This document shows, one piece after another, positions 24,249 through 31,373 of a stretch of DNA of 64,000 nucleotides. Source of the stretch: a virus. The translations under genes and the position numbers were made by a program. Numbering within the stretch: position 1 is the stretch's first letter; every line of letters starts with the position of its first letter. Where the stretch lies: IMG/VR virus record IMGVR_UViG_3300009666_000001; one strand, given 5' to 3'. Below the pieces are notes generated by a model. It had not been told where the DNA came from, made no database searches, and was given only the letters and a program-made list of their open reading frames with translations.

Positions 24249-24935
24249 ATGGCTAAAATAATTGGAATTCCCGGTTGGAAAGTTGGGGATAATTCTTTCG
24301 GAGTTACAACACCATATTTAGAATTTTTTAGTCAATATGGCGTGGTGAAAATATTAACCCCAGAAGAAGAAGTAAATAAAGATATAGATTTATTAGTTCT
24401 TCCCGGTGGTGCAGATATAGATACAAATAGGTATAGTTCCATACCTTCTTTGAAAACGGGTAGACCCGATCCTATTAAAGAATATTTTGATATAAATATA
24501 TTACCTAAGTATATTGAAAACAAAATACCAGTATTTGGTATCTGTAGAGGAATGCAATCAATAGCAGTTATGTTTGGAGCAAAGCTAGTACAACATATTA
24601 TTAACCACGAGACCAATGATGAAGATAGAAGTTCACGTGTTCATGGGCTGGCGTTTATGAATGATGGTTTTAAAAAAGAATTATTTCGTTGTTATGAACT
24701 ACCTAGCCAAACTTCTTTTAAAGTAAATTCATTACACCATCAATGTATTCTTAGCTCAAGTTTACCAGAACACTTAAATATCTTGGCGGTATCTAAAGGT
24801 AAATTTTCCATGTCTTGTGTAGAAGTAATAATGCATTCTGAATTACCCATTGCTGGAGTTCAATATCATCCTGAAGAATTGATGAACGATATAATTTCAG
24901 AGTATTTAATAAACTTATTAATATCTAAAAAATAA
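24249..24935 (+). CDS. class I glutamine amidotransferase, peptidase C26 / gamma-glutamyl hydrolase (PuuD)-like
   Basis: LLVLPGGADI, nucleophile elbow FGICRGMQ, SLHHQ, GVQYHPE (Cys-His-Glu triad signature). Confidence 0.8.
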   Translation: MAKIIGIPGWKVGDNSFGVTTPYLEFFSQYGVVKILTPEEEVNKDIDLLVLPGGADIDTNRYSSIPSLKTGRPDPIKEYFDINILPKYIENKIPVFGICRGMQSIAVMFGAKLVQHIINHETNDEDRSSRVHGLAFMNDGFKKELFRCYELPSQTSFKVNSLHHQCILSSSLPEHLNILAVSKGKFSMSCVEVIMHSELPIAGVQYHPEELMNDIISEYLINLLISKK

Positions 24936-24939
24936 AATT

Positions 24940-27902: not shown

Positions 27903-29943
27903 AAGTATGAATGAAAAAGTTTTTAAGGTCTATATCAATATTTTAATGGTATTATTATTAATAATACAATTATTATTAATATTTAATATTAATGAAAATA
28001 TAATTTACGCATGTGGTTTATTTGCTTTTATTGGAAATAATCCCGGGAAATACTTTAAATGGGATAAATTCAATACCCTGGGACTTTTTAATGATGAACG
28101 AGGTGGGGACGCGTGTGGGAGGATAGTTAATAATAAAGTCTGTTGGGGTGTTGATAAATTGAAAAAATACAAAGATTTTGTATGTGAAGTTAATAACACA
28201 CCTATTAGAGTCAAAAGTAATGTGGTATTAGGACATTGTAGAAAAGCAAGTTCTGGTGGAAAGGCGGATATCTATGCTCAACCTGTAGTCTTATTTAAAG
28301 ATGATATAATCATGGATAAGATAAAAGATGAAGTCATGATAGAAAGACTTGGTAAAATGAAAGATGATGACATCGTGTTTTCTGGAATTCATAACGGCAC
28401 GATAGAAAATTACTTAAAACTTGCCGAAAACCATGGTATAAACATTGTAAATCATAATGATTCAAGAGTATTATTAAGTATATTATTTTATGAAGAATAT
28501 GAAGTTCTTTTAGAATATGAAGGAACGGCTGCCCTGATTTGGCATAATCATGTTCTAAATCAAACTTTTGTCTATAGGGGAGAATCAAAATTATGGAGTA
28601 CCTCGGTAGACACTAGTGAAGAGAAACCTTTGTTTGGATGGAAAGTAGCTGACAATAATTGGTATTTATCTTCGATAAGTGATTCACTGAGTTTCATACA
28701 GTCAAAGAAAAGTGAAGTATTGGAAGTAGAATCCAACAAATTATTTAAATTTGTAAATGGCGAATCAGTATCTGAAACTATATATGATAGGTCAAAATGT
28801 ACTCAAAATAAAATATATAATAAAAGTAACACGTACAACCAATCTAGATTGGATTTCGAAGATTCTAGGTATGGATATTCTAAAAGTACGCGTTACCCAG
28901 CTTTACGAAGTTATAACGCGTATGAAGAATTTGATGAATACGGTAATTGGGTATATAAAGATGATCTTCCTTGGAAAGATTCAAGTCTAAAAGATTCTCC
29001 CAAGCGTGTACAGTTTACAAGACATATTTATAATGATACTTACTCTAGTGAAAGAACAAGTCTCGAAATACCTGAACAACATGATGATTCCCTTAAAAGA
29101 TCTATATATAATAAAGGTAGGTATTGGATGAATAATAACCTTATGCATGGAGTCTATCCTTTATCCGTGAGCGGTATTATATCTCCAAGCATATATGCTA
29201 AAAATATAATAACATTAAAACTTTACTATTTTGTAGAAGGCATTATGCTTGATAGTGTTCAATCTTATTATAAAGCTTTAGATATACATAGGAAATTTAT
29301 GAACACCATTCTAAAGGATTATCCCAGTAATGTTACAAAAGAGGAGAAACTATTAACGTTTAAAATATCTAAATACGCGAAATACGCTATCACACCTCTT
29401 CTGAATTTTACTGATAGAGAGTCTTGTTTTTCTACTATAGATCTTGGTAATAAAGATATAAATAATAATTATTTTACTGGAACGATAAATCCCATATTTT
29501 CCAGAAGGTCTTATAGATATAATACTGGTAGATTAAGTAATATTTATGATACAGGTTTGATTAAAAATGCTGTTCATGATTATTCAGATAACGAACAAGC
29601 AAATAAATATCTTAATGAAAGTAATAGTGATAATCCAAAAGATCCCTGGTACGTGGGAAAGAACCTTGTAAATTTCCCAGATCTTATAAATCCAATGTCT
29701 CCATTTCAAGAATTCTTAATGGATTATTGTGATTTTAGTGGTTATATTACAAATGGTAGTATATTAGATAATGAAACTATTTTTATGATAAATTACATGA
29801 GGGATTTTGACAAGAGAACCATAGCTAAATGTGATGTATGCTCTTCAAAAAACTCATCACTAATAAGAAATTGTGCAAGTTGCACTAACTTAAAAGACAA
29901 TTTTAATGATATTAAATACGATAAATCTTTATGGAGTATATGA
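27877..29943 (+). CDS. class II (Ntn) glutamine amidotransferase fused to an unknown 430-aa C-terminal region with terminal zinc ribbon
   Basis: CGLFAFIG (Cys46), LGHCRKASSGG (compare GHTRWATHG), GIHNGTIENY (compare VHNGIIENY of GlmS/PurF-type GATases); C-terminal CDVCSS...CASC. No PP-loop SGGxDS seen. Confidence 0.7.
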   Translation: MKKLKNIIKSMNEKVFKVYINILMVLLLIIQLLLIFNINENIIYACGLFAFIGNNPGKYFKWDKFNTLGLFNDERGGDACGRIVNNKVCWGVDKLKKYKDFVCEVNNTPIRVKSNVVLGHCRKASSGGKADIYAQPVVLFKDDIIMDKIKDEVMIERLGKMKDDDIVFSGIHNGTIENYLKLAENHGINIVNHNDSRVLLSILFYEEYEVLLEYEGTAALIWHNHVLNQTFVYRGESKLWSTSVDTSEEKPLFGWKVADNNWYLSSISDSLSFIQSKKSEVLEVESNKLFKFVNGESVSETIYDRSKCTQNKIYNKSNTYNQSRLDFEDSRYGYSKSTRYPALRSYNAYEEFDEYGNWVYKDDLPWKDSSLKDSPKRVQFTRHIYNDTYSSERTSLEIPEQHDDSLKRSIYNKGRYWMNNNLMHGVYPLSVSGIISPSIYAKNIITLKLYYFVEGIMLDSVQSYYKALDIHRKFMNTILKDYPSNVTKEEKLLTFKISKYAKYAITPLLNFTDRESCFSTIDLGNKDINNNYFTGTINPIFSRRSYRYNTGRLSNIYDTGLIKNAVHDYSDNEQANKYLNESNSDNPKDPWYVGKNLVNFPDLINPMSPFQEFLMDYCDFSGYITNGSILDNETIFMINYMRDFDKRTIAKCDVCSSKNSSLIRNCASCTNLKDNFNDIKYDKSLWSI

Positions 29944-31373
29944 AGGAAATTTCAAAAGTTGTTGTAACATTTGATGGTACTGAAGCTTATAGAAAAGATT
30001 GTAGGTATATAAAAGGTGGATTCTATAAGATGAATTCTCAATGTTTCTATATAAATGGAATGTGGTATCGTATTAACAGTGGTAAAATAGCATTCGATCA
30101 CGAATTAAAAGATTGGATATTATTAAATTCAAGTAGTGGACTACATAATGGTGTTATTAAACTTGAAAATAGTAAACCCGTCATGGGATTGTTCAGTGAA
30201 AATAAAGATAAGAATGTTATTTTATTTTATAAGGGATATGAATACTGGGTTTTAGATGAGAAAATATTATTGGATTGTTCTCGTATAATAGAGGGTGTGA
30301 ATGGTAAGTATTATTATAGCGATGAAAAAAGTATTCCTATATCTTATACTAAAAAACTTAGACCACAAAAAGAGAGGTTTTATTCATTTTCCTTTAATTA
30401 TGGAAGTGAGCCATTAATACCAGAATTCACGAGTAACTTCGAAAGAAATTTTATAGGTAAACCATTATTATCAAATGCTTGGGAGCAATTAGACTCATAC
30501 ACGTTTGGAGTAGAGTTTGAAACACATCGTGGAACTATTCCAGAAAAACATCTTGTTAATAACGGGTTAATTGCTTGTAGGGATGGTAGTATTGAGGGTT
30601 TTGAATATACTACCATACCATTATCTGGAGATAGGGGTATTCGTTGTATAAAAAACGCGTGTTGGTTACTTAAGAAATATTGTTCTTGTAGTCCTAACGA
30701 GAGCTTACATATTCATGTAGGTGGTTATCCAAGATCTACAAAATATATTTCATCTCTTTACAGGCTTGCTTTAATAGTTGAAAAAGAGATATATTCATTA
30801 TTTCCAATGTATTATGCTAATACTTCTGTTTTTAAAAGAAAAGGATATTGTAATCCTCTTTATAGAGTAGGTGAAGACAATAGGTTGAGCAGAGAAATAT
30901 TTTCCAAAATTTATAGACATCTTAGTGGTGATAGAGAGGGTTTTGTTAAATTTCCAACAGAACTCCACCCACTAGATAGAAGTGGTCAACATAAATGGGA
31001 TGTATCTCCTCGCTATTATTGGATAAATTTCATTCCCTTGATATGGGGTTCTCGTGGTACTATAGAATTCAGATGTCATCCCCCGACAGTAATCGCTCAA
31101 AAAGTAATTAACTGGCTATTTATAATAGTTGCATTATTAAAATATGCACGAAAAAATGTATCATCACTAGTATATTGTGTTGAATCTGATTTGCCTAAGT
31201 TGACTTTAAAAGATATTTTACAATCTGTCTATCCTCCAGAAATTACTAAAATATTATGTAATTATATTACAGCAAGAAAAATACATTATCATGATGGCAA
31301 TGATTCCGTTGGAGAAACGGAGATCTTTTCAGAAGAATACACGGATATATTTAAGTTAGAAGAGTTTGTTTAA
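29931..31373 (+). CDS. Amidoligase_2-type (GS-like) amidoligase with unknown 190-aa N-terminal domain
   Basis: FGVEFETHRG, CRDGSIEGFEYTTIPLSG, SLHIHVGG, RGTIEFRCHPPT. Confidence 0.7.
   Translation: MEYMKEISKVVVTFDGTEAYRKDCRYIKGGFYKMNSQCFYINGMWYRINSGKIAFDHELKDWILLNSSSGLHNGVIKLENSKPVMGLFSENKDKNVILFYKGYEYWVLDEKILLDCSRIIEGVNGKYYYSDEKSIPISYTKKLRPQKERFYSFSFNYGSEPLIPEFTSNFERNFIGKPLLSNAWEQLDSYTFGVEFETHRGTIPEKHLVNNGLIACRDGSIEGFEYTTIPLSGDRGIRCIKNACWLLKKYCSCSPNESLHIHVGGYPRSTKYISSLYRLALIVEKEIYSLFPMYYANTSVFKRKGYCNPLYRVGEDNRLSREIFSKIYRHLSGDREGFVKFPTELHPLDRSGQHKWDVSPRYYWINFIPLIWGSRGTIEFRCHPPTVIAQKVINWLFIIVALLKYARKNVSSLVYCVESDLPKLTLKDILQSVYPPEITKILCNYITARKIHYHDGNDSVGETEIFSEEYTDIFKLEEFV

Follow-up and report, generated by a model that had tools for sequence, protein, structure and literature searches.

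Introduction

An operon built around amidoligases was defined in phiEco32 (gp77-gp88), LUZ24/PaP3 (orf42-orf50) and phiRIO-1-like podoviruses (Iyer et al. 2009; Hardies et al. 2013), and from 2009 onwards the same set of genes has been reported from hundreds of other phages. The literature labels the operon a putative "peptidoglycan modification cassette" (Duhaime et al. 2017), and the same module is named in PMC5498523, PMC4819975, PMC11945000 and PMC10580990. Our literature search found no paper reporting the product or target of the cassette, in agreement with the original prediction, and no biochemical or genetic data for any cassette member.

Here we analysed a 64,000-nucleotide stretch of viral DNA from IMG/VR (the window). 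Its cassette cannot count as a fresh finding, as two crAss-like genomes in GenBank, cr108_1 and Cellulophaga phi14:2, already carry annotated copies; it is the crAss-lineage copy of a phage-specific amidoligase / gamma-glutamyl-amide operon.

Cassette layout and comparison with described operons

Seven plus-strand ORFs, co-directional and abutting or overlapping, occupy positions 24249-31373, exactly where a seven-gene run between the primase and the exonuclease, RNR and PolA genes had been predicted. The flanking genes were also as described, except that a 96-aa ORF intervenes before the exonuclease.

23244..24236, + strand: Toprim primase (context), directly upstream of the cassette; Pfam Toprim_2
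24249-24935, + strand: class I glutamine amidotransferase / peptidase C26-like glutaminase, 228 aa; Pfam Peptidase_C26 3e-29, GATase 5e-19
24940-25338, + strand: gamma-glutamyl(amine) cyclotransferase, AIG2/GGACT family, 132 aa; Pfam GGACT 2e-21, PHROG 2520 1e-21
25341-26144, + strand: RimK-like ATP-grasp carboxylate-amine ligase, 267 aa; Pfam ATP-grasp 1e-6 (score barely above cut-off), PHROG 2599 5e-30
26137-27063, + strand: ORF4, cassette-specific protein with no assigned family, 308 aa; C-terminal SH3-like barrel at about nt 26896-27057
27060-27902, + strand: COOH-NH2 ligase type 2 (glutamine-synthetase/GCS2-fold amidoligase), 280 aa; PHROG 3815 6e-35, Pfam PF14395 (COOH-NH2_lig) 1e-3, under the gathering score
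27877-29943, + strand: ORF6, class II (Ntn) glutaminase with a private C-terminal domain, 688 aa; Pfam GATase_6 26.9 bits against a cut-off of 27
27877..28011, + strand: N-terminal 45-residue extension of ORF6, basic and hydrophobic, ahead of the catalytic Cys
28012..28806, + strand: class II (Ntn) glutaminase domain of ORF6, from Foldseek of the AlphaFold model
29014..29940, + strand: family-private C-terminal domain of ORF6, ending CxxC...CxxC; AlphaFold pLDDT mostly >90
29931-31373, + strand: Amidoligase_2 enzyme, 480 aa; PHROG 2443 9e-23, Pfam Amidoligase_2 21.7 bits against a cut-off of 22
about 29931-30485, + strand: extra N-terminal domain of the Amidoligase_2 enzyme, preceding its glutamine-synthetase-fold catalytic domain
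31385-31675: 96-aa ORF between cassette and exonuclease
31668..32759, + strand: PD-(D/E)XK exonuclease (context), downstream; Pfam DUF3799
32771-35164: RNR (context), after the exonuclease; precomputed Pfam hits, identical genes in L007
35450-37459: PolA (context), after RNR; precomputed Pfam hits, identical genes in L007

From the primase onward the junctions are gaps of 12, 4 and 2 nt, overlaps of 8, 4, 26 and 13 nt and then an 11-nt gap, and because they are so tightly packed the cassette genes are probably translationally coupled. A DnaB-like helicase belongs to the flanks together with the primase, exonuclease, RNR and PolA, and cassette and replication genes are transcribed as a single co-directional block.

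The gene families and the primase-adjacent position are those of phiEco32, PaP3, cr108_1 and phi14:2, which confirms the predicted identity with the phage amidoligase system of Iyer/Aravind 2009. The window shares with the phiEco32/LUZ24/PaP3/phiRIO-1 operon a COOH-NH2 ligase, an Amidoligase_2 enzyme, a class II GATase, an ATP-grasp enzyme and a GGCT, all with invariant catalytic residues, as well as co-directional tight packing, contact with a primase or primase/helicase and at least one uncharacterised protein of ~200-330 aa inside the operon. Gene order differs between the crAss type (primase-...-GRASP-unknown-CNLIG-GAT2-AMID2) and the podovirus type (GAT1-CNLIG-u6-AMID2-GAT2-GRASP), identity to the podovirus proteins is just 23-30%, and the uncharacterised partner proteins of the two have no detectable mutual sequence similarity. 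Compared with the podovirus operon, the window Amidoligase_2 has an additional 185-aa N-terminal domain, found only in the crAss and cyanophage lineages among the six aligned, and the Ntn glutaminase has a putative hydrophobic propeptide and a longer C-terminal domain.

Closer likenesses were seen with the Steigviridae/Asinivirinae copies in cr108_1 (gp028-gp034) and phi14:2 (g037-g041), which have the run primase, cassette, (UDG), exonuclease, RNR and the core order ATP-grasp ... COOH-NH2 ligase, GAT-II, Amidoligase_2 at 27-40% identity; phi14:2 also has the hydrophobic extension on its Ntn enzyme. The window's cassette begins with the class I glutaminase and has one uncharacterised gene, whereas cr108_1 has two such genes and phi14:2 has neither a class I glutaminase nor an uncharacterised gene; no UDG follows the cassette in the window. 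With only 37% identity between the PolA proteins of the window and cr108_1, the window belongs to a distant crAss-like lineage. Synteny with annotated cassettes was found in cr108_1, phi14:2, PaP3, phiEco32, a Rhizobium phage and a Vibrio phage, and also in the metagenomic relatives L003/L004; in the first five, a primase or primase/helicase adjoins the cassette or lies within a few kb.

Family assignments and catalytic residues

The proposed complement of three ligases, class I and class II glutaminases, a GGCT and one unknown protein was borne out by Pfam, PHROG, NCBIfam, Foldseek and motif evidence. Profile searches upheld the ligase and amidotransferase assignments, although three of the seven Pfam assignments fall slightly under their gathering scores and depend on PHROGs, motifs and a single fold match. 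Alignments spanning five to seven phage lineages showed no variation in the catalytic motifs of the cassette enzymes: Cys99, His207 and Glu209 of the class I glutaminase (five lineages; PHROG 7218 match, 64% identity to the L003 homologue); the YGxL motif (Y7, G8, L10) and Glu74 of the GGACT protein (six lineages); E236 and N238 (E-x-N motif) and further residues of the ATP-grasp enzyme (six lineages); and E195, E197, H260, H262, E379 and R381 of Amidoligase_2 (six lineages). In the COOH-NH2 ligase, D9, E11, H145, H147, E204 and R206 were invariant in seven to nine lineages.

The ATP-grasp enzyme had the RimK family as its best NCBIfam match, with PurK, MptN and LysX also listed (all below cut-off), and its PHROG is annotated 'S6 glutaminyl transferase'. 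These matches would fit a modification of proteins. Glutamate or a short peptide would be joined by the ligases to a protein of host or phage, much as RimK glutamylates ribosomal protein S6 or as in PafA/Dop-type tagging; the glutaminases and GGCT would edit or erase the mark, and ORF4-type proteins would pick the target. The Pup ligase PafA has the glutamine-synthetase fold common to the COOH-NH2 ligase and Amidoligase_2, fast-evolving partner proteins lie within the cassette, expression would be early or middle, with host-takeover and replication genes, and GGACT enzymes are described in the literature as cleaving gamma-glutamyl-epsilon-lysine. Against this, no small ORF nearby ends in a conserved Glu, Gln or Gly that would make it a possible tag or carrier; positional equivalents have E, Q, Y, V and I as their last residues. 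For its chemistry GGACT also needs glutamate whose alpha-amino group is free, unlike that of a glutamate at a protein C-terminus, and the sequence identifies no target. We consider protein modification unlikely.

Distribution and genomic neighbourhood

Relatives of the COOH-NH2 ligase were found in 300 GenBank phage records (tblastn) and 451 IMG/VR contigs, but among 185,579 species genomes at no more than 25 loci, of which 23 are on MAG contigs and two on tiny scaffolds from an isolate assembly. The cassette is thus nearly restricted to phages. Among the best 80 of the 451 IMG/VR loci, which include near-duplicate contigs so that the counts are of non-independent events, the ligase was accompanied by Amidoligase_2 in 72, the class II GATase in 71, the ATP-grasp enzyme in 69, the class I GATase in 63 and GGCT in 26, with all cassette genes on the same strand in 79. 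These loci show the cassette conserved as a unit.

This distribution bears on a second possibility, that the cassette produces or recycles gamma-glutamyl amines or peptides (such as gamma-glutamyl-polyamines or glutathione-like thiols) or redirects glutamine/glutamate nitrogen in support of nucleotide and DNA synthesis, the gamma-glutamyl group perhaps giving temporary protection, as it does in the Puu pathway and in butirosin biosynthesis. PuuA/PuuD (putrescine), BtrJ/BtrG (butirosin) and EgtA/EgtC (ergothioneine) each combine a gamma-glutamyl-installing carboxylate-amine ligase with a remover of the C26, GGCT or Ntn type, and the cassette's glutamine-synthetase-fold ligases, C26/PuuD-type hydrolase and GGCT fit this carrier logic. 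The class I enzyme of the window matches the gamma-glutamyl-GABA hydrolase (PuuD) and gamma-glutamyl-CDP-amidate hydrolase models, below cut-off in both cases, and the cassette lies beside RNR and other nucleotide-metabolism genes, or beside PncB and PrsA in cyanophage Lbo-JY46. Those pathways, however, are cellular and run on a single ligase and a single hydrolase; in the cassette, which is near phage-restricted, three ligases stand beside up to three enzymes that handle gamma-glutamyl groups. A ligase family almost absent from cellular genomes would be unusual for a host-borrowed auxiliary metabolic pathway, lineage-specific, fast-evolving non-enzymatic partners are unexpected in a simple metabolite pathway, and GGCT is present in only about a third of the 80 loci. 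We consider a role in small-molecule metabolism unlikely.

The cassette almost always lies within the replication region, and recurring neighbours in the same best 80 loci were PolA (33), primase (30), DnaB-type helicases (28 and 27), PD-(D/E)XK nuclease (25), UDG (20) and RNR (18). This embedding across lineages would suit DNA hypermodification, in which an amino-acid-type group is appended or amidated on phage DNA or dNTP precursors by a pathway that does not involve 5-hmU, 5-hmC or 7-deazaguanine chemistry. The thymidine hypermodification clusters of M6, ViI, SP10 and phiW-14, which comprise 5-HMUDK, aGPT-Pplase and PLP/rSAM enzymes, likewise lie in or near replication modules, and in virome contigs with 5-HMUDK and aGPT-Pplase2 Weigele et al. 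also found genes with Pfam amidoligase and amidotransferase hits (PMC8989533); the Ntn protein also bears a zinc-ribbon-like Cys4 motif. Yet none of the defining genes of these clusters was present in the window or in the recurrent neighbourhood. A search of 38 ORFs of the window, and of 20 of the gene families most often seen near the cassette in the 80 loci, gave no thymidylate-synthase-like hydroxymethylase, 5-HMUDK, aGPT-Pplase, DpdA/Que or glycosyltransferase. The original prediction had rightly noted that no hydroxymethylase, kinase or glycosylase of known routes is visible, and its suggestion of hypermodification is weak because these partners are missing. In addition, DNA of a cassette-bearing LUZ24-like phage was cut by 11 of 16 restriction enzymes, in a test in which 7-deazaguanine phages resisted more enzymes (PMC11945000). 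Finally, of the crAss-like records in the PolA search, cr111_1, IAS virus and crAss001 were not among the Amidoligase_2 matches, so the cassette is not core replication machinery. Hypermodification found no positive support and is, in our assessment, very improbable.

The Ntn glutaminase and ORF4

The AlphaFold model of ORF6 matched the glutaminase domains of GlmS/PurF/AsnB (Foldseek E 4e-10, prob 1.0), in line with a profile match to PurF (1e-6). R77, N128, G129 and D150 were invariant and Cys1 was kept in at least 90% of 54 homologues. The catalytic Cys has no adjoining start codon and is read in frame from the extension (...NIIYA|CGLFAF). An extension of at least 8 aa was present in 41 of 50 homologues, 40 of the 41 having A, G or S before the Cys and 24 a TM-like hydrophobic 15-mer. 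This putative propeptide, membrane tether or signal-like segment is a new detail; its sequence suggests a hydrophobic N-terminal propeptide on most close homologues. In other lineages the enzyme begins Met-Cys, implying a plain cytoplasmic protein.

Neither sequence profiles nor the top fold hits gave a PDB relative for the C-terminal domain of ORF6, in which four Cys are invariant. Its first half matches 265 representative clusters, most of the listed matches lying ~300 residues into proteins of 550-850 aa, and a GATase-II domain was upstream in five of ten members scanned with Pfam.

ORF4 had no family match in Pfam, PHROGs, NCBIfam or PADLOC and only eight homologues among 5.8 billion proteins, both of the two whose genomic context was examined occupying the same cassette slot. 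Its AlphaFold model (pLDDT 81, pTM 0.81) had no PDB fold match at E<1e-3. The best BFVD matches were cr108_1 proteins of 300 aa (E 1e-3, TM 0.45) and 329 aa, corresponding by length to gp030 and gp029. A structural likeness of ORF4 to gp030, a further new detail, is thus predicted from the model.

Proposed pathway and acceptor

Of 69 loci, 67 have the class II glutaminase gene directly beside Amidoligase_2, and of 62, 51 have the class I glutaminase no more than two genes from the COOH-NH2 ligase, both sets being drawn from the best 80 of 451. The former pairing suggests glutamine-fed amidation rather than simple "trimming": the original division into makers and trimmers stands as one option, but gene adjacency fits glutaminase-ligase amidotransferase pairs at least equally well. 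In the window the class I glutaminase does not adjoin the COOH-NH2 ligase, so that the second pairing is not mirrored by local gene order.

Our preferred reading, at a probability of about 0.78, is that this crAss copy of the phage operon spends ATP and glutamine on amide bonds to a carboxylate-bearing acceptor. In the pairing, chemistry and reaction order that we infer, the COOH-NH2 ligase and Amidoligase_2 would activate carboxylates through their glutamine-synthetase fold, the C26-like glutaminase probably supplying ammonia to the former and the Ntn glutaminase to the latter, and each pair would convert a carboxylate to a carboxamide or amide link. The RimK-like ligase would add an amino acid, most likely glutamate, the GGACT-type cyclotransferase would take off a gamma-glutamyl group as 5-oxoproline, and ORF4 may be a fast-evolving accessory or targeting subunit.

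The leading candidate acceptor, which we advance tentatively and which is also the hypothesis of the literature, is the peptide stem of cell-wall precursors. Several observations run against it: the cassette lies with replication and not with lysis genes, we detected no Mur-ligase-like or UDP-sugar-binding domain in it, and the Met-Cys start in other lineages points to a cytoplasmic enzyme. The hosts of archaeal viruses have no peptidoglycan. Papers on such viruses mention amidoligase and GATase genes, not as a confirmed cassette. On the other side, the hydrophobic extension of the Ntn enzyme in this clade and the SH3-like barrel of ORF4 hint at a membrane or envelope link. MurT/GatD consists of a class I glutaminase and an ATP-dependent ligase, and AsnB1/LtsA of a class II glutaminase and a synthetase; together they also make two glutamine-dependent, ATP-driven carboxylate amidations per peptide, one per glutaminase class. 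This likeness is an analogy, as the ligase parts are not homologous: the fold of the phage ligases is that of glutamine synthetase and differs from those of the Mur ligases and the AsnB synthetase, and Pfam, NCBIfam and Foldseek detected no relation to either system beyond generic glutaminase domains. Acting on the cell-wall stem, the cassette of this crAss-like phage would introduce two amidations and one extra peptide bond, mirroring MurT/GatD and AsnB1/LtsA.

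An additional member of a known phage amidoligase operon

The cassette is a further member of the known phage amidoligase, or gamma-glutamyl-amide, operon of the phiEco32 / LUZ24 / phiRIO-1 type, and the window brings no new kind of system. Identity with the phage amidoligase system of Iyer, Aravind and co-workers had been proposed from the sequence, and this was right: the same families are present, and in known carriers they are linked to a primase or helicase. All seven plus-strand open reading frames lie at exactly the coordinates first assigned to them, in the following setting.

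Upstream side: DnaB-like helicase and Toprim primase, the primase ending 12 nt before ORF1
24249-31373 (+): cassette, ORF1 to ORF7
Downstream side: 96-aa ORF, PD-(D/E)XK exonuclease, RNR and PolA

Counted from the primase, successive genes are separated by 12, 4 and 2 nt and then overlap by 8, 4, 26 and 13 nt, and a gap of 11 nt follows the last of them. Features of the operon type found here are a COOH-NH2 ligase with its motifs, a class II glutaminase gene adjoining an Amidoligase_2 gene (the 13-nt overlap of ORF6 and ORF7), co-directional ATP-grasp and gamma-glutamyl cyclotransferase (GGCT) genes, and a site in the replication arm near the primase. Scans of the cassette returned 60 sigma-70 promoter matches against 66.9 expected from shuffles and 5 terminators against 3.3 expected, without enrichment in either case and with consensus sequences that may not suit the host.

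The window comes from the genome of a crAss-like phage, in which one ORF matches the Crassvirus Cargo protein 2 family and the family A DNA polymerase shares 37% identity with its cr108_1 counterpart and 34% with that of crAss001. No near-identical DNA was found among GenBank phages; several metagenomes contain the same phage, its contigs reaching about 102 kb. Other features of the window were as follows.

10300-11967 (+): 555-aa protein with a DUF7788 domain (2e-9), early region
21160-21249: tRNA-Leu-TAA
31373-31668: 96-aa ORF only, no uracil-DNA glycosylase (UDG)
37461-38177 and 38180-38827 (+): tandem pair of calcineurin-like metallophosphoesterase genes, directly past PolA
38915-38988: tRNA-Met-CAT
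39128-39200: tRNA-Gln-TTG
39233-40072 (+): cysteine protease of the papain family (Pfam Peptidase_C1, 7e-18), where the replication arm ends, immediately past tRNA-Met and tRNA-Gln
44505-58874 (-): giant 4789-aa ORF; neighbouring ORFs of 1381 aa, 474 aa (crAss cargo protein 2-like) and 1129 aa

UDG directly follows the cassette in the crAss-like phages cr108_1 and Cellulophaga phage phi14:2, in the metagenomic relative L003 and in many IMG/VR loci. Papain-family proteases are uncommon in phages, and the tRNA-Gln-TTG is notable in a phage whose cassette is rich in glutamine-handling enzymes. The giant ORF and its flanking ORFs are presumably the crAss-type block, which encodes cargo and RNA polymerase proteins packaged in the virion.

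Searching GenBank phages with the COOH-NH2 ligase (tblastn) recovered 300 records, chiefly Pseudomonas phages of the LUZ24/PaP3 kind and coliphages of the phiEco32 kind. PaP3 and phiEco32 carry the same families in one block ending at a primase/helicase gene, a Vibrio phage has a block similar to the cassette, and a Rhizobium phage has its cassette genes scattered across about 12 kb, a primase/helicase lying downstream of them at a distance of a few kb. The annotated cassettes of cr108_1 and phi14:2 are syntenic with the window (primase, cassette, UDG, exonuclease, RNR), their proteins being 27-40% identical to those of the window. Amidoligase_2 proteins of the window's type occur among GenBank phages in cr108_1, phi14:2 and the cyanophage Lbo-JY46 only; crAss001, cr111_1 and IAS virus, all found by PolA search, are absent from these matches, and the cassette is therefore accessory within the crAss-like group.

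Leptolyngbya phage Lbo-JY46 (positions 1-13215) encodes the complete cassette, including three genes for class I glutaminase-like proteins, beside PncB and PrsA (NAD/PRPP). No GenBank PolA is closer to that of the window than the PolA of this cyanophage, at 47% identity, which points to a replication module related to that of crAss phages.

The phage amidoligase system was reportedly predicted by comparative genomics by Iyer and colleagues in 2009. Later papers naming the module, including one that terms it a "putative peptidoglycan modification module" (PMC11945000), cite earlier comparative genomics (Iyer et al. and/or Hardies et al. 2013). Full-text literature searches found no experimental characterisation of any cassette member.

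Conserved catalytic residues of the cassette enzymes

Six of the seven proteins were assigned to families.

Family assignments of the seven cassette proteins
ORF1: class I glutaminase, peptidase C26 type; Pfam 3e-29, 102.6 bits; Cys99, His207 and Glu209 invariant
ORF2: GGACT/AIG2 gamma-glutamyl cyclotransferase; Pfam 2e-21, 77.1 bits; YGxL (Y7, G8, L10) and catalytic E74 invariant in 6 lineages
ORF3: ATP-grasp ligase; Pfam 1e-6, PHROG 5e-30
ORF4: no assignment; no library match
ORF5: COOH-NH2 ligase type 2; PHROG 3815 6e-35; Pfam PF14395 18.8 bits, below the cut-off of 25
ORF6: class II (Ntn) glutaminase; GATase_6 26.9 bits, cut-off 27
ORF7: Amidoligase_2; PHROG 2443 9e-23; Pfam 21.7 bits, cut-off 22

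Catalytic residues were invariant across alignments of the cassette proteins with homologues from cr108_1, phi14:2, Lbo-JY46, PaP3, phiEco32 and one metagenomic relative. The G-x-C-x-G and H-P-E motifs of ORF1 are intact (G97, C99, G101, H207, P208 and E209 invariant), giving a Cys-His-Glu triad. Both glutamine-synthetase-fold ligases, ORF5 and ORF7, keep an acidic pair on the first strand, H-x-H and E-x-R; residues D9, E11, H145, H147, E204 and R206 of ORF5 are invariant with PaP3, phiEco32, cr108_1, phi14:2, Lbo-JY46, the Rhizobium phage and the Vibrio phage. Among NCBIfam models ORF3 matched the RimK family best, with PurK, MptN and LysX also matching, all below cut-off. Sequence searches returned no PDB relatives of ORF5, ORF7 or ORF6, a PDB profile search matched only the glutaminase domain of ORF6, and no defence-system model (PADLOC, E <= 0.01) matched any of the seven proteins. 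Judged by these conserved residues, the cassette encodes three predicted ATP-dependent carboxylate-amine ligases and two predicted glutaminases, all intact, together with one predicted gamma-glutamyl cyclotransferase.

The Amidoligase_2 gene of L003 (6012-8347) is split into parts of 361 and 116 aa, corresponding to ORF7 residues 1-361 and 365-480, with a 202-aa ORF inserted between them that may be of homing-endonuclease or intron type.

A hydrophobic extension and a private domain in the class II glutaminase

We modelled ORF6 with AlphaFold starting at its catalytic cysteine, taken as Cys1 (pLDDT 87). Residues 1-265 resemble the glutaminase domains of GlmS, PurF and AsnB (Foldseek of the model, E 4e-10, probability 1.0), and among 54 homologues the glutamine-binding R77, N128-G129 and D150 are invariant and Cys1 is kept in at least 90%. 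The model continues through a disordered linker into a confidently folded 309-aa C-terminal domain ending in CxxC...CxxC. Profile and fold searches of this domain gave no Pfam or PDB relative, and no known acceptor or synthase domain (SIS, PRTase, AsnB synthetase or FMN) was found in ORF6. Searched against 1.84 billion proteins, its profile matched 265 representative clusters; in most of the matches listed it sits some 300 residues into a protein 550-850 aa long, and a Pfam scan of ten matches placed a GATase-II domain upstream in the five long ones. Since the matches lie mainly downstream of GATase-II-type N-terminal regions, the domain looks private to the ORF6 protein family. No informative fusion partner emerged, most listed matches of the 265 clusters sharing this one placement.

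In the encoded protein the catalytic cysteine is residue 46, preceded by ...NIIYA with no adjacent start codon, leaving a basic and hydrophobic N-terminal extension of 45 residues (window 27877-28011). Among 50 homologues with the cysteine aligned, 41 have an extension of at least 8 residues, 40 of these 41 carry A, G or S directly before the cysteine, and 24 have a TM-like hydrophobic stretch; nine of the 50 start with Met-Cys, as do the cr108_1, Lbo-JY46 and PaP3 proteins. Ntn enzymes require a free N-terminal cysteine, so activity in the ORF6 clade would call for the processing of a propeptide. Removal of the 45-residue propeptide, as needed for activity, is plausible given the conservation of the extension in 41 of 50 homologues. 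The extension looks like a propeptide, signal peptide or membrane anchor; the position of its basic residues varies between members, so that topology cannot be read from sequence. If the enzyme were membrane-tethered or exported, this would favour an envelope-directed function.

ORF4 and the small flanking proteins

ORF4 has eight homologues among 5.8 billion proteins, and the two with genomic context examined both occupy the same cassette slot. Its model (pLDDT 81, pTM 0.81) had no PDB fold match save for a C-terminal SH3-like barrel. The best BFVD matches (Foldseek) were cr108_1 proteins of 300 aa (E 1e-3) and 329 aa (E 9e-3), a weak link; by length these are gp030 and gp029, the positional equivalents in the cr108_1 cassette. 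No profile similarity joined ORF4 to gp029 or gp030 (hhalign), and a pattern scan of viral contigs found no relatives. Because the two homologues examined share the slot and its best viral-structure matches correspond by length to cr108_1 cassette proteins, ORF4 is a fast-evolving yet genuine cassette component.

A Pup/LysW-like tag encoded beside the cassette was considered and rejected, the C-termini of small flanking ORFs not being conserved in five lineages. The 96-aa ORF of the window and PaP3 orf44 end in Glu, positional equivalents end in Q, Y, V or I, and no small flanking ORF in the five lineages encodes a protein with a conserved C-terminal Gln/Glu or EDWGE-type site.

Gene pairing and restriction to phages

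IMG/VR and a set of species genomes were scanned with the same COOH-NH2 ligase pattern, built for the genome scan from 5 aligned sequences. At least 451 IMG/VR contigs encode a relative. Within 10-kb flanks of the best 80 of the 451 loci we counted Amidoligase_2 in 72, class II glutaminase in 71, ATP-grasp in 69, class I glutaminase in 63, GGCT in 26 and ORF4-like genes in 2; these are lower bounds, many loci being cut by contig ends, and are not independent, some contigs being near-duplicates. The cassette genes were all on one strand in 79 of the 80 loci. Recurrent neighbours in this set were PolA (33), primase (30), DnaB-type helicases (28 and 27), PD-(D/E)XK nuclease (25), UDG (20) and RNR (18), and the cassette genes are inherited as a unit with replication genes.

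Two gene orders recurred. The crAss type runs primase, (GGCT), ATP-grasp, unknown, class I glutaminase, COOH-NH2 ligase, class II glutaminase, Amidoligase_2, UDG ... RNR, PolA; the podovirus type runs class I glutaminase, COOH-NH2 ligase, u6, Amidoligase_2, class II glutaminase, ATP-grasp ... DnaB, PolA. Both architectures keep the class II glutaminase next to Amidoligase_2 (67 of 69 loci) and the class I glutaminase at most two genes from the COOH-NH2 ligase (51 of 62). The original prediction had read the cassette as a pathway of makers and trimmers, which is possible, but these pairs suggest glutamine-fed amidation instead.

Among species genomes (one for each of 185,579 species) the same pattern found 25 COOH-NH2 ligase loci only, and the family is thus almost restricted to phages. 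Twenty-three of these loci lie on MAG contigs, many of them phage-sized, and the other two on tiny scaffolds of an isolate assembly. Several matches (L094, L095, L098-L101, L105, L108 and L109) come from MAG contigs placed in bins of Saccharibacteria or other Patescibacteria (CPR); the contigs are possibly phage DNA, in which case they would hint that phages infecting CPR bacteria carry the cassette.

Proposed chemistry and candidate acceptors

The conserved pairing of class II glutaminase with Amidoligase_2 and of class I glutaminase with COOH-NH2 ligase suggests two glutamine-dependent amidoligases, in each of which the glutaminase would supply ammonia and the glutamine-synthetase-fold ligase would activate a carboxylate. 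One RimK-type amino-acid addition may stand beside the two amidations, and a gamma-glutamyl group could optionally be removed.

Foremost among the possible acceptors, at a probability of roughly 30%, we place the peptide stem of cell-wall precursors. This candidate comes from analogy: two amidations, one with a class I and one with a class II glutaminase, would mirror the cellular MurT/GatD and AsnB1/LtsA systems, which likewise make two amidations, one per glutaminase class. A modified peptidoglycan peptide is also the hypothesis in the literature. A host or phage protein, which we rank second, is rather unlikely to be the acceptor, and we are similarly doubtful of a small gamma-glutamyl metabolite, ranked third.

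DNA or nucleotides come fourth and are improbable. An amide-linked Glu/Gln-derived group on phage DNA, the dNTP pool or a replisome component, by chemistry unrelated to the 5-hmU, 5-hmC and 7-deazaguanine routes, would account for the company that the cassette keeps in unrelated phage lineages (genes for primase, helicase, polymerase and nuclease) and for its near absence from cellular genomes; we nevertheless give it little credence. The original prediction, which raised DNA hypermodification, saw no hydroxymethylase, kinase or glycosylase of known routes, and this held for all 38 window ORFs. Against the DNA reading, known partner genes (dUMP/dCMP hydroxymethylase, TET/JBP, 5-hmU DNA kinase and aGPT-Pplase) occurred in none of these 38 ORFs and in none of 20 of the most frequent neighbour families (80 loci), and the DNA of a LUZ24-like cassette phage is cut by 11 of 16 restriction enzymes (PMC11945000).

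Significance

Among multi-enzyme cassettes of virulent phages that are described by computation, the module ranks with the most widespread, and recorded hosts of phages with a relative of its COOH-NH2 ligase include Pseudomonas, Escherichia, Vibrio, Rhizobium, Cellulophaga and a cyanobacterium. New leads from the window are modest, and culturable carriers are a better place to attack this old question. The window shows that the full cassette set is retained in a distant crAss-like lineage and points to glutaminase-ligase pairs as the units for reconstitution, and the conserved, putative hydrophobic propeptide of an Ntn enzyme may show where in the cell the pathway acts. Once solved, the function of the module would prove to be either an editing of the cell envelope under phage control or a modification of macromolecules or metabolites that belongs to a new class.
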